A stretch of 64,000 nucleotides of DNA, taken from contig CBDANF010000003.1 of assembly GCA_965197475.1 (NCBI GenBank), positions 2,528,001 to 2,592,000 on the forward strand. Direction: 5' to 3'. The notes under the pieces are model-generated. The model worked only from the letters and a program-made list of their open reading frames with translations. It ran no database searches and was not told the origin of the DNA. The translations under genes were made by a program, and so were the position numbers. The stretch comes from Candidatus Poribacteria bacterium (GTDB lineage Bacteria > Poribacteria > WGA-4E > WGA-3G). This document shows positions 25,418-28,600 of the stretch, in pieces (the first letter of the stretch is position 1; each line of letters begins with the position of its first letter).

Positions 25418-25484
25418 GACCCTAATCCTATGTTCCCGACGAACTTTACTTCGCAAAACCGGGGCAGGTGCCTTGAAAATATGG

Positions 25485-25513
25485 TTGACAACCGCTACTG
25501 GTTTTGCTATACT
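25485..25513 (+). promoter_or_regulatory. Consensus sigma70 promoter inside the element's right end
   Basis: TTGACA(25485-90)-N17-TATACT(25508-13) with extended TG. Confidence 0.75.
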
Positions 25514-25519
25514 TTAGAC

Positions 25520-25632
25520 ACGTTTATCGCTAAACGCATCATTTCTCAAAGAGGATGCTCGCGATCCCAACGCAACCCACTCATCAACGATCGCTGGGAA
25601 GCCAATAAACATCAGCCTTCCAGCTATCCTAT
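25520..25632 (+). ncRNA. Candidate element-encoded structured small RNA
   Basis: Starts at the predicted TSS; four consecutive hairpins, two with large loops. Confidence 0.45.
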
Positions 25633-25644
25633 GGTCATTTGATA

Positions 25645-28600
25645 CTATTTCAGAATAAGCATTTTCCGTAAAAGGGATTTATTATCTGCTTGCAGTTGAT
25701 AGAAATAGATACCACTCCCGACACGTTCGCCAACAGCATTGGTGCCATCCCAATGTGCAGCACGACTCCGACTTGTATAGTAGCCTGCCCGCTGATGTCC
25801 GAGTTCTAAACGGCGGACGGCGACACCCCGCGCGTCGTAGATAGTAATCTGCACGTCGCTCGCTTTTGCTAAGTGATACGGTATCCACGTCTCTGGGTTG
25901 AATGGATTGGGATAGCTGGAGAGCAGGACTGTGGTAGTGGGAAGTGTTTGACTTGCCGGTGCTGCGTTGCCATCCTCTGCAGGAATCTCAATATCTATGG
26001 TTAGACCCGGATTGTTCGCCTGCATCCTGCGGAGCGGTGCGTAATCTGAAATAGAATTCCCACTGAGCCTTAACGTTGTCAGCGCAGTCAACTCTTCGAG
26101 TGTTGATATATCGCTGATGTCGTTACGGGACAGATCGAGTTTTATCAGTGAAGTCAACTCTTCAAGTGCCGATATATCCCTGATGCCGTTACCGTAAAGA
26201 TCGATCGTTTCCAGTGCTGTCAACTCTTCAAGTGGCGATATATCACTGATGCGGTTAGAGGACATATAGAGCCGTGTCAACGCAGTCAACTCTTCAAGTG
26301 CCGATATATCGCTGATGCGGTTAGAGGGCAGACCGAGCGTTGTCAGCGCAGTCAACTCTTCAAGTGCCGATATATCGCTAATGCTGTTAGAGGACAGAAT
26401 CAACTGTGTGAGATTGGTCAACTCTTCAAGTGCCGATATATCGCTGATACGGTTAGAGGACAGAGAAAGCGTTTCCAGTGAAGTCAACTCTTCAAGTGCC
26501 GATATATCGCTAATGCTGTTATTTCTCAAAGAGAGCTGTGTCAGCGCAGTCAACTCTTCAAGTGCCGATATATCGCTAATGCTGTTAACGGACAAAGAGA
26601 GCGTTGTCAACGCAGTCAACTCTTCAAGTGCCGATATATCGCTAATGCTGTTAACGGATAGATCGAGGTATGTCAGATTGGTCAATTCTTCAAGTGTTGA
26701 TATATCGCTGATACGGTTAGAGGACAGATTGAGCGTTGTCAGTGCTGTCAACTCTTCAAGTGCCGATATATCACTAATGCTGTTAGAGGACAGATTGAGC
26801 GTTGTCAGTGCTGTCAGGTCTTCAAGTGCCGATATATCGCTGATGCTATTATTGTTTAGAACGAGCGTTGTCAACGCAGTCAACTCTTCAAGTGCCGATA
26901 TATCGCTGATGCGGTTAACGGACAGCCAGAGCGTTGTCAGTGCGGTGAGTCCATCAAAATCACCGTCTTGCAGTGTTGTGATTTGTCTATATCCAAGATC
27001 AAGCGCAGTAATCGCGGCAAGATGTGCCGCTGTCACATCATCCGCGGAGTTAATCCCTGGCACTGCTCGGACAATAGCATCGCGTACCTGTTGCGTGCGG
27101 TCACTGACCGGGGTCACATTCTCGTTTACATCTTTGACGTTAATAGTGACGGTGGTAGTTGCGCTCCTCTTTTTCCCATCGGAGACAGTGATCTTCACCG
27201 TATAGGTTTTCTTCGTTTCATAATCCAGGGATGCTTTCGTTTTCAGTTGTCCGGTTGTTCTGTCAAGGCTAAACGAGTCCGCATCTGTGCCACTGGACGC
27301 GTATGTCAAGGTATCGCTGGTATCCGCATCTGTAGCATCGACTGGCGTGCCGATGTTTGTGTCCGCCGCCGTGTTTTCATCTATGGCGCGGGTTGTGCTT
27401 TCGCCATCCGTGAACACGGGTGCACTGTTTGTTACTTGCGGTGCCCTGCGGGTAGCAGTAACCGTCACGTCAACGCTCGCACTCCCCCCGTTGCCATCAG
27501 TAGCAGTGACGATGACTGAATAGTCAGATCGCGTATCGCTAATGAAAGCGGCAGTGGTTTGCAGCTGCCCTGTTGTGCTATCAATGTCAAACGATGCAGC
27601 GTCTGTGCCACCGAGCGTGTATGTCAAGGTGTCGTTGTCCGCATCTGTCGCAGACACAGGATCCCCGATATTTGTACCGGCGGTATCCCCATCTATTTCT
27701 ATGCTCCGGATGATATTACTTAGTAAGAACACGGGGGCACGATTCGGTGCAGCCACAGAAACAGAGATACTCTGTGTCGCTGTTAGCTTACCATCGCTCG
27801 CTGTCACGGTGACTGTCGTATTCCCTGCTCCTTCTGGCGTGATCGTCACAAGGGAGCCAGATACACTTGCGGTTGCTACACTAATATCATCCGAACTGGC
27901 GGTATAAGTGAGCGTGTCATCATCAGGATCCGAAAAGTTGCCAGATACATCCACACGCACAACTGAACCACCCGCTATCAACGTATAAGAAGAAATTGAA
28001 CCGACTGCCACAGGCGCACGATTCGGCGCAGCCACAGAAACAGAAATGCTTTGTGTTGCTGTTAACTTACCATCGCTTGCTGTCACGGTGATTGTTGCGT
28101 CCCCTGTTCCCTCTGGTGTGATCGTCACTAAAGAACCAGATACGCTTACGGTTGCCACACTGGTATCATCCAAGCTGGCGGTGTAGGTGAGCGTGTCATC
28201 ATCGGGATCCGAAAAGTTGCCGGCTACATCTATCTGCACGGAAGAATCCCCTGCTGTTAAGGTATCAGCTGAAATCGTGCCAACTGCCACTGGTGCACGA
28301 TTCGGCGCAGCCACAGAAACAGAAATGCTTTGTGTTGCTGTCAACTCACCATCACTCGCTGTTACCGTGATTGTAGCGTCTCCTGTTCCTTCTGGTGTAA
28401 TCGTCACTAACGCACTGGACACGCTCACGGTTGCTACACTGGTGTCATCTGAACTCGCGGTATAGGTGAGCGTGTTATCATCGGGATCCGAAAAGTTGCC
28501 GGCTACATCCACGCGCACAAGTGAACCACCCGCCACCAACGAATAAGACGAAATTGTGGCGATTGGCACAGGCGCACGATTCGCCGCAGCCACAGAAACA

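Follow-up and report, generated by a model that had tools for sequence, protein, structure and literature searches.

A conserved outward promoter and a candidate structured RNA in the right end of a DUF1670 insertion sequence from Candidatus Poribacteria

Does the non-coding end of an insertion sequence whose only genes are two paralogues of the DUF1670 family produce an RNA of its own, and could such an RNA help the element to find its target? The question is raised by a mobile element in a window of 64,000 nucleotides (nt), the whole stretch of DNA that was analyzed, from Candidatus Poribacteria bacterium (assembly GCA_965197475.1, contig CBDANF010000003.1, positions 2,528,001 to 2,592,000 of the forward strand). 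The element carries the genes orfA and orfB, and a non-coding stretch of 231 base pairs (bp) separates the stop of orfB (25417; all positions are those of the window) from the right end of the element. There, an original prediction made from the sequence alone had placed a consensus promoter driving a multi-hairpin RNA of ~125 nt, put forward as a candidate guide or regulatory RNA for the DUF1670 proteins. Our analysis suggests that an element-owned, promoter-driven, partly structured RNA is likely, at slightly better than even chances. The features on which transcription would depend are the following:

25485–25513, + strand: outward sigma-70-type promoter (-35 TTGACA at 25485–25490, 17-nt spacer, TG at 25505–25506, -10 TATACT at 25508–25513)
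25453–25507, + strand: imperfect inverted repeat GCAAAACCGG (25453–25462) / CTGGTTTTGC (25498–25507), bracketing the -35 box
25518–25650, + strand: portion of the predicted transcript encoded by the element, starting at ~25518–25520 as deduced from the -10 box

The promoter TTGACA-N17-TGcTATACT was found at exactly the place originally predicted. It agrees with the consensus at 11 of 12 positions, has the additional TG, and is the best promoter-like site between 23500 and 26100. Since the number of promoter-like sites in this interval is at chance level (4, vs. 3.4 ± 1.8 in shuffled sequences), the argument for a promoter has to be based on the quality of the site and on its conservation. The extended -10 box TGnTA[TC]A[CA]T is kept in all the 27 homologous right ends analyzed, which come from 27 other genomes. 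The -35 box has the form TTGnnn in 26 of them (TTGACA in 16, TTGGCA in 5, TTGATA in 3, TTGACC in 1, and TTGGAA in 1), L030 having no good -35 box, and the spacers differ among three subgroups. The fact that the -10 and -35 boxes are kept while the spacers diverge is the pattern of a promoter under selection. In other subfamilies (L095, L108, and L078), the sequence TTGACA-N18-TAATAT occurs just ~45–50 nt from the end, and when a loose regular expression was applied to the right ends of the whole superfamily, promoter-like motifs were found to point outward in 87 of 139 cases and inward in 21 of 139. A Bacteroidota-type TAnnTTTG box noticed by eye in AT-rich subfamilies is kept as no more than a lead, since it overlaps the likely stop codon of orfB.

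The imperfect inverted repeat around the -35 box was confirmed by direct reading. Its two arms, GCAAAACCGG and CTGGTTTTGC, were seen by eye to vary in the relatives without any compensation, which makes them look more like a DNA site or a part of the promoter than like an RNA helix. This brings in the main rival explanation, according to which the last ~130–230 bp act at the DNA level only, as a cis-acting right end containing binding sites for the DUF1670 proteins, the promoter being an ordinary outward promoter of an insertion sequence (IS) and its RNA functionless. We regard this explanation as fairly unlikely. In subfamilies L095 and L108, an inverted repeat brackets the -10 box in an operator-like manner, in line with this rival, whereas the presence of the extended -10 box in 27 of 27 right ends argues for selection on transcription itself.

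Downstream of the predicted start, four stems can be drawn:

25521–25536, + strand: hairpin 1 (H1), CGUUUA/UAAACG with a 4-nt loop, at the 5' end of the RNA (arms 25521–25526 and 25531–25536)
25537–25557, + strand: hairpin 2 (H2), CAUC.UUU/AGA.GAUG (GCATC..GATGC at 25536–25540 and 25554–25558)
25561–25594, + strand: stem 3, GCGATC/GATCGC (arms 25561–25566 and 25589–25594), unsupported
25589–25628, + strand: hairpin 4 (H4), an 11-pair stem (25589–25599 with 25618–25628) and an 18-nt loop with the near-invariant sequence AAUAAACAUCAG, located 4 nt from the terminal repeat

All four stems had been predicted and were found in place, the fourth in the form GCTGGGAAG/CTTCCAGC (25593–25601 and 25617–25624); this last stem turned out to be longer than first drawn, with 11 pairs, and stem 3 is not conserved. 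The single-sequence fold has an energy of -27.8 kcal/mol (z = -2.31 on the + strand, matched by 4 of 200 shuffled sequences; z = -1.37 on the - strand). Covariation was analyzed in an alignment of 22 sequences belonging to this element's own subgroup (A6, obtained with MAFFT), in which 24 pairs were tested. Over the whole tested structure, changes affecting both sides of a pair occur in 12 cells, vs. 4.9 ± 1.8 in shuffled alignments, a value reached by none of 500. In H1, three of the six pairs change on both sides, and one of them reads CG in 11 sequences, UA in 5, UG in 5, and something else in 1. Stem 3 was rejected: only 75.5% of its cells are paired, pairs 47–76 and 49–74 are broken in 12 and 11 of the 22 sequences, respectively, and no double changes occur. 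The check across homologues proposed with the original prediction thus came out in favor of H1 and against stem 3, while H2 was uninformative in this unbiased alignment and H4 did not rise above shuffled controls.

With a covariance model built on A6, a second alignment of 58 distinct sequences was obtained (A7), in which 15 of the 24 pairs show double changes (6 of 6 pairs in H1 and 7 of 7 in H2), every measure exceeds all 500 shuffles, and the covariation score is 0.241, vs. at most 0.079 with slid partners; since A7 was fitted to the structure and its sequences are related, these figures overstate the case. Over H1, H2, and H4, G-U cells number 72 and A-C cells 17, which indicates that the helices pair better on the strand read by the promoter (+). 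The compensatory changes and G-U intermediates in H1, and the ratio of 72 to 17 on the promoter's strand, both go against an action at the DNA level only, whereas the fact that H4 and H2 are conserved chiefly as sequence is in line with it.

The region itself is non-coding. A small protein encoded by the 70-codon open reading frame (ORF) at 25430–25642 was considered and rejected: it belongs to no Pfam family, and the frame stays open for anything from 16 to 96 codons in 27 relatives and hence is not conserved. A 17-codon ORF seen by eye has only 6 codons in L042. The Rfam scan of 23000–26500 at E <= 1 gave no match.

The fact that the promoter is conserved, that H1 covaries (as H2 does in the model-fitted alignment), and that G-U cells outnumber A-C cells on the + strand suggests that a real, strand-specific RNA is made. 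The explanation we favor, to which we give about an even chance, is that the right end contains a real outward transcription unit owned by the element, the product of which is a non-coding RNA or a leader serving the element in cis. We infer the start site, the synthesis of the RNA, and each of the functional steps below from sequence comparisons. Transcription would begin at 25518–25520, where the conserved sigma-70-type promoter would fire outward, and the first ~110 nt would fold into the 5'-terminal H1, the second conserved hairpin H2, and the long subterminal H4 abutting the terminal repeat. No + strand terminator was found before or just after the end of the element, nor any terminator on either strand in the right end, so that ~130 nt is a minimum length and the RNA is expected to continue past the terminal repeat and into flanking sequence; the discrete RNA of ~125 nt originally proposed was therefore not confirmed. 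Once through the repeat, the RNA would exit the element. In the integrated state, transcription would then run antisense to the last codons of the neighboring host gene, which ends in a T9SS sorting domain, and if a right end were joined to a left end, in a circle or in tandem, it would run into orfA; both courses had been named as alternatives to a guide in the original prediction. The hairpins may stabilize the RNA or bind the DUF1670 proteins, which are of the winged-helix type.

Several observations weigh against this explanation. In A6, 94.8% of the H2 cells are paired and 5 of its 7 pairs are invariant, which is why this hairpin is uninformative there. H4 shows 86–92% pairing in A6, with one-sided changes from G-U to G-C or A-U only, and when 27 sequences from more subgroups were included, 88.9% of the cells were paired, with G-U to G-C or A-U changes and a single double change; its covariation was reached by 131 of 500 shuffles. 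RNAalifold gave no consensus on the mixed 27-sequence alignment apart from three trivial pairs, and the per-group consensus folds of three groups disagree. The RNA of subgroup g2 is 33 nt shorter and lacks H2 and the C/A-rich stretch, yet this subgroup has many copies. As regards expression, parts of the stretch occur in 14 runs labelled as RNA (sponge or related metatranscriptomes); contigs from 4 of these runs, belonging to 4 studies, cover orfA, orfB, and the non-coding end, and some continue from 25663–25669 into differing flanks resembling sorting domains, but since they are assembled contigs they give no start, strand, or level, and they may also reflect DNA carry-over or read-through from host genes. 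Joined ends were not encountered: no pattern of a right end followed within 0–12 nt by a left end (RE-N(0-12)-LE) occurs in the same genome, which is 92.7% complete, and no back-joining joint was present in the RNA-library contigs of the 4 runs. The left end (23640–23672) has a weak promoter-like site of its own, TTGTAT-N17-TATACT, overlapping the terminal repeat, and the relatives keep the T, the A, and the final T of its -10 box (TTGTAT-N17-TAnACT). This site is likely to be the promoter of orfA, which end-binding proteins could shut off, and given its presence orfA need not rely on the right-end promoter.

To these points must be added the right-end relics. A covariance model built on 25518–25650 (R1) matches 90 of 151 genomes of the phylum, more than carry DUF1670, and 12 of 30 fetched loci were found to be right-end relics devoid of orfA and orfB, lying next to the ends of sorting-domain genes (L196, L202–L204, L206–L212, and L185, in genomes G160, G167, G132, G077, G159, G099, G113, G139, G106, G162, G144, and G173). 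Several of these relics keep the 133-nt RNA region at 79–88% identity while the promoter upstream has decayed, a pattern which weighs somewhat toward a constraint acting at the DNA level or on the host side. The DNA-level explanation also gains from the nature of the proteins, which are arrays of (winged) helix-turn-helix domains, and loses from the fact that no counterpart of H4 was seen in the left end on reading by eye, unlike what is found with transposase sites shared by both ends. In 5 of the 12 relics, the homology detected by BLAST begins within ~17 nt of the predicted transcription start. The possibility that the relics are RNA-derived copies was discarded, since L204 and L211 retain remnants of the promoter and L208 retains the -35 box; they are read as old decayed copies. 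L207 and L212 show no upstream similarity, and their sharp homology boundary is left without an explanation.

The element to which this right end belongs is delimited as follows:

23635–25648, + strand: the insertion sequence itself, of a DUF1670 family (2,014 bp, ATAG...CTAT)
23633–23634, unstranded: left copy of the TT target duplication (ACTT at 23631–23634 is the reverse of the first base of the host stop codon plus the Lys codon AAG)
25649–25650, unstranded: right copy of the TT target duplication
23642–23654, + strand: left terminal inverted repeat GTATCAAATGACC, conserved at the left end in relatives
25633–25645, + strand: right terminal inverted repeat GGTCATTTGATAC

The ends were set from aligned copies and from empty sites in relatives. 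The same genome contains 22 matches to the element, 18 of which are nearly full length at 92–100% identity. To the left of the copies, the flank ends in A(C/T)TT, the empty sites in relatives read ..TTA/CTA CTT.., and T is present at positions 1 and 2 after ...CTAT in all of 158 distinct flanks. The terminal repeats GGTCATTTGATAC and GTATCAAATGACC are complementary at 13 of 13 positions, and the right one directly follows the RNA region, as predicted. Near-identical copies, inverted-repeat ends, a target duplication, and empty sites are therefore all present, which makes the element an insertion sequence. More than 120 metagenome contigs, from samples of many kinds, contain the terminal 18-mer GGTCATTTGATACTATTT, at the ends of elements which are otherwise unrelated internally. 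The family is apparently undescribed: a literature search for DUF1670, PF07900, and the terminal-repeat strings yielded no mention of it, ISfinder and supplementary files lying outside the scope of this search. PF07900 genes occur, often many times over, in 46 of 176 genomes of the phylum, and close relatives belong to Candidatus Poribacteria according to their source names. A PF07900 match was also found in Methanosarcina acetivorans, used as a control genome, which extends the family to both Archaea and Bacteria.

Derivatives and neighbors of the element were also observed. Miniature inverted-repeat transposable elements (MITEs) of ~85–130 bp with the same termini occur in metagenome contigs L064, L127, and L078, the last of which retains a promoter-like site, TTGACA..TATCAT. 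The only joints present in the RNA-library contigs, 23648>25594 and 23669>25619 in run X7, skip ~1,945–1,949 nt and resemble small deletion derivatives of this kind. The BrickBuilt MITE of Porphyromonas was considered and set aside as unrelated, since the available part of its description (PMC4596501) assigns it different, IS5-type terminal repeats. In metagenome contig L128, the right end directly abuts the left end of another subfamily (..TAAGTTTGTATCATATGACC), which corresponds to a tandem or nested arrangement or to a junction. To the left of the element, the ORFs at 21827–23068 (- strand) and 23324–23632 (- strand) resemble the C- and N-terminal domains of GmrSD, and HNH, only weakly and below threshold, and may be pieces of a split or decayed restriction-type nuclease gene.

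The two genes of the element both encode DUF1670 proteins:

23724–24536, + strand: orfA, DUF1670 protein of 270 amino acids (PF07900, E = 4e-62)
24533–25417, + strand: orfB, DUF1670 paralogue of 294 amino acids (PF07900, E = 1.2e-61)

Their PF07900 scores are 209.9 and 208.3 bits, respectively (cut-off 25), and the two proteins are 35% identical. The search for relatives of orfB yielded 1,540 sequences, and the DUF1670 family includes 1,252 representative clusters at E <= 0.001, among which are fused forms with two and three domains. Residue R163 is invariant, and G164, H175, H198, Y206, D99, D134, and R118 are nearly so. The AlphaFold2 model of orfA (predicted local distance difference test, pLDDT, 89.8) is mostly helical with one beta-hairpin. 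When this model was compared with the PDB using Foldseek, no matches were obtained at E <= 0.001, the best being the C-terminal winged helices of SelB (E = 0.055); the profile search of the PDB with DUF1670 gave as its best match a "CAP repeat" (E = 3e-4), the remainder being helix-turn-helix proteins, and the ESM Atlas search gave scores of at most 0.80. The NCBIfam scan yielded nothing above the cut-offs, and the Pfam search detected only PF07900 and helix-turn-helix families, without any DEDD or serine recombinase domain. According to these models and profiles, orfA and orfB are arrays of (winged) helix-turn-helix domains without a recognizable catalytic fold. The fused two- and three-domain forms likewise gave DUF1670 and helix-turn-helix matches only, with no catalytic domain. 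Chains in which two or three DUF1670 domains are fused, in the absence of any other Pfam domain, include P0133, P0134, P0136, and P0149 (930–952 amino acids) and about 20 chains of 500–660 amino acids; the existence of such chains suggests that the A and B proteins probably act as one multi-domain unit.

The site of insertion is defined to the base by one further feature:

25645–25650, - strand: the last Lys codon of the host gene (25648–25650, one base from the element plus TT) and the stop codon TAG supplied by the element (25645–25647)

The host gene is an ORF on the - strand (25645–31842) encoding a leucine-rich-repeat (internalin-like) protein of 2,065 amino acids with internal DNA repeats. 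Its C-terminus matches TIGR04183, Por_Secre_tail (the T9SS type A sorting domain), with 32.1 bits (cut-off 23) over profile positions 2–71 of 72, and it is this sorting domain, at the end of what had first been noted as a leucine-rich-repeat gene, that is the true target of the insertion. The stop codon TAG (25645–25647) and the third base of the last Lys codon are located within the element, and uninterrupted paralogues in relatives end in ...AAG TAA or ...AAG TAG, which indicates that the element was inserted inside the Lys codon and restores it, as AAA, together with the stop. The host protein is thus left unchanged by the insertion, the terminal CTAT providing the third base of the Lys codon and TAG. 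The junction coincides exactly with the end of a homologous sorting domain for 18 of the 20 distinct right ends in this genome, for 34 of 40 right ends from other genomes of the phylum, and for 82 of 113 right ends on metagenome contigs. The logo of 158 flanks, TT.A..A..A.CATYTT, has a 3-nt period, which is a coding-level signature. The same genome also contains dozens of paralogous sorting-domain ends with 65–84% DNA identity, so that landing sites are plentiful. Some copies of the third subgroup (L021, L022, L034, and L145; left flank ACCGAGTTTTTT, right flank TTCTTCAAAACTCGGT) are centered in a palindromic repeat, ACCGAGTTTT-TT-CTTCAAAACTCGGT, which constitutes a second target class used with the same termini.

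This position at the end of a host gene is the basis of another explanation, according to which the outward transcript acts as an insulator or antisense RNA, pairing with transcripts which read in from the host gene and thereby limiting interference with orfA and orfB, or modulating the host T9SS-domain gene. At the right end, the host gene faces orfA/orfB in convergent orientation and is cut off by the insertion from its own terminator; neither strand has a terminator in the right end, 18 of 20 right ends in this genome adjoin the end of a sorting-domain gene, and RNA-library contigs span the right end and the flanks. Those contigs have no strand resolution, however, the conserved hairpins inside the element are left unexplained, and the element otherwise seems to spare the host gene by restoring Lys and stop. 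On balance, we find an antisense role quite unlikely.

Could the RNA nevertheless specify the target, as originally suggested? A position weight matrix of the target gave a mean best score of 5.5 in the right ends, vs. 4.9 in shuffled sequences, with z > 2 in only 6 of 139. The same scan ruled out a target-like motif of the right end, AATAAACATC, which by eye resembles flanks such as AATCAACATC. RNA duplexes were computed with both strands of the left end, with both strands of the right end plus its flank, and with the start of orfA; the fractions of shuffled sequences doing at least as well were 0.80, 0.41, 0.72, 0.48, and 0.42. The duplex with the start of orfA (23690–23745) has an energy of -22.1 kcal/mol, vs. 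-21.8 ± 3.8 in shuffled sequences. These results agree with the absence of loop-to-target complementarity first noted by eye. In addition, among the 96 metagenomic right ends of the same superfamily for which enough sequence was available, 89 have no similarity to this RNA, and 60 of those 89 lie at the ends of sorting-domain genes. Since right ends without this RNA have the same target class, the choice of target is not carried by the RNA sequence. By this comparison, it is the DUF1670 proteins and the invariant termini that target choice follows, and not the sequence of the right-end RNA. The idea of a guide RNA for the DUF1670 proteins therefore found no confirmation, and it is unlikely that the right-end RNA is an encoded target guide.

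The same data bear on three more specific proposals. The first is a cofactor like a seekRNA or bridge RNA, which would bind the DUF1670 proteins and base-pair with target or donor DNA, or with both. It would fit the site and orientation specificity of the insertion, the absence of a recognizable catalytic or targeting fold in the proteins, the near-invariant 18-nt loop of H4 adjoining the terminal repeat, and the fact that the non-coding region follows the genes, an arrangement also described for IS1111 (PMC11187229). We hold it to be very unlikely, as no above-chance complementarity to the target, flank, left end, right end, or orfA start was found, 89 of 96 metagenomic right ends do without this RNA sequence (60 of the 89 having the same target class), orfA and orfB have no DEDD or serine recombinase domain, and the 2-bp duplication and the element's own promoter differ from what is described for IS1111 in the same source. 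The second proposal, which we see as a distant prospect, is that transposition is RNA-assisted here in a new way, with the right-end transcript as its RNA subunit, H1, H2, and H4 forming the protein-binding scaffold and the flank-copied 3' part helping to find or re-occupy sorting-domain sites; this would account for how little the very different subfamilies have in common, namely the target, the invariant terminus of 18 nt, and a promoter-like motif pointing outward. The third, for which the chances look slimmer still, is a layout like that of an omega RNA, with the hairpins as scaffold and the flank-copied read-through as a guide to the emptied donor site or to paralogous sorting-domain ends; the tests above, which bear on a guide encoded in the element, give this layout no positive support and do not speak against it. 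Lacking a terminator, the transcript must indeed cross the terminal repeat into the flank, and a guide derived from the flank would require just what the subfamilies have in common: a target class, a terminus of 18 invariant nt, and a promoter-like motif that points outward (87 of 139). On the other hand, no RuvC-type or other nuclease was found by Pfam or fold searches, the paralogous targets share only the degenerate, periodic TT.A..A..A.CATYTT, which is too weak for RNA pairing, and a defined 3' end is without evidence.

If the RNA under the favored explanation, that of an outward transcription unit serving the element in cis, proves functional, the element would add one more insertion-sequence family to those which encode a non-coding RNA of their own in an end, beside IS110/IS1111 and the TnpB RNAs, and the partners of this RNA would be proteins in which no known fold of a recombinase or nuclease is seen. 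The element deserves attention even if the RNA is left aside, as a widespread, apparently undescribed family which is inserted with single-base precision in the last Lys codon of its host gene. The landing site is "harmless" in that Lys codon and stop are both restored, and this family, with its stop-codon-precise and gene-sparing target, is a more surprising result than the RNA. A new transposition chemistry, or a compact module for targeting, could come to light once it is understood how helix-turn-helix proteins, with or without this RNA, reach such precision.

Among known systems, those nearest to this one are the IS1111 seekRNA, the IS110 bridge RNA, the TnpB omega RNA, and the IS10 RNA-OUT, whose defining proteins or base pairings were looked for here and not found. 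The bridge RNA of IS110 precedes the recombinase gene and carries bipartite guides in its two loops. The present element resembles IS110 in having an element-encoded non-coding RNA, here a candidate one, in a non-coding end and a 2-nt core flanking the inserted element, and differs from it in having no loops with complementarity and no DEDD or Tnp domains. The omega RNA of TnpB/IscB in IS200/IS605 elements starts in the end of the element and crosses its boundary, the 3' part being derived from the flank. An outward promoter with no terminator found is compatible with this layout, whereas no RuvC nuclease gene was found, terminal inverted repeats and a target duplication are present, and there is no Rfam match. 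In IS10, RNA-OUT and the transposase mRNA overlap, at the 5' end of the latter. Like the IS10 pOUT/RNA-OUT system and the outward promoters of the ISAba1 type, which give a short structured RNA or the expression of a neighbor, the right end described here has a complete outward promoter near the end of an insertion sequence. Unlike that of RNA-OUT, this promoter is at the opposite end, ~1.8 kb from the start of orfA, with no overlap and with pairing at chance level; unlike the situation with ISAba1-type promoters, the neighboring gene is convergent and nothing downstream is switched on. The junction promoters of IS3, IS30, and IS110 are split between the two ends, IS30 having a 2-bp spacer. 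Here, too, joined ends would send right-end transcription into the first gene, but the promoter is complete without a junction, and no junction was found in the same genome or in the RNA contigs.

The comparison with IS1111 is based on the available part of PMC11187229. In that element, the non-coding region downstream of the transposase gene gives an RNA of 82 or 154 nt which co-purifies with the transposase and is essential, the sole promoter arises from the joining of the ends in a circle, and there is no duplication of bases (PMC11187229). IS1111 has a DEDD transposase where the present element has only two DUF1670 proteins, its seekRNA has target-complementary segments where none were found here, and in place of a junction-made promoter and no duplication, the present element has a complete promoter ~130 nt inside its end and a TT duplication (PMC11187229). 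The two elements are alike in their strict site and orientation specificity and in their targeting of repeated sequences, and the seekRNA, like the RNA predicted here, is a structured RNA from the non-coding region downstream of the gene, beside the right end (PMC11187229).

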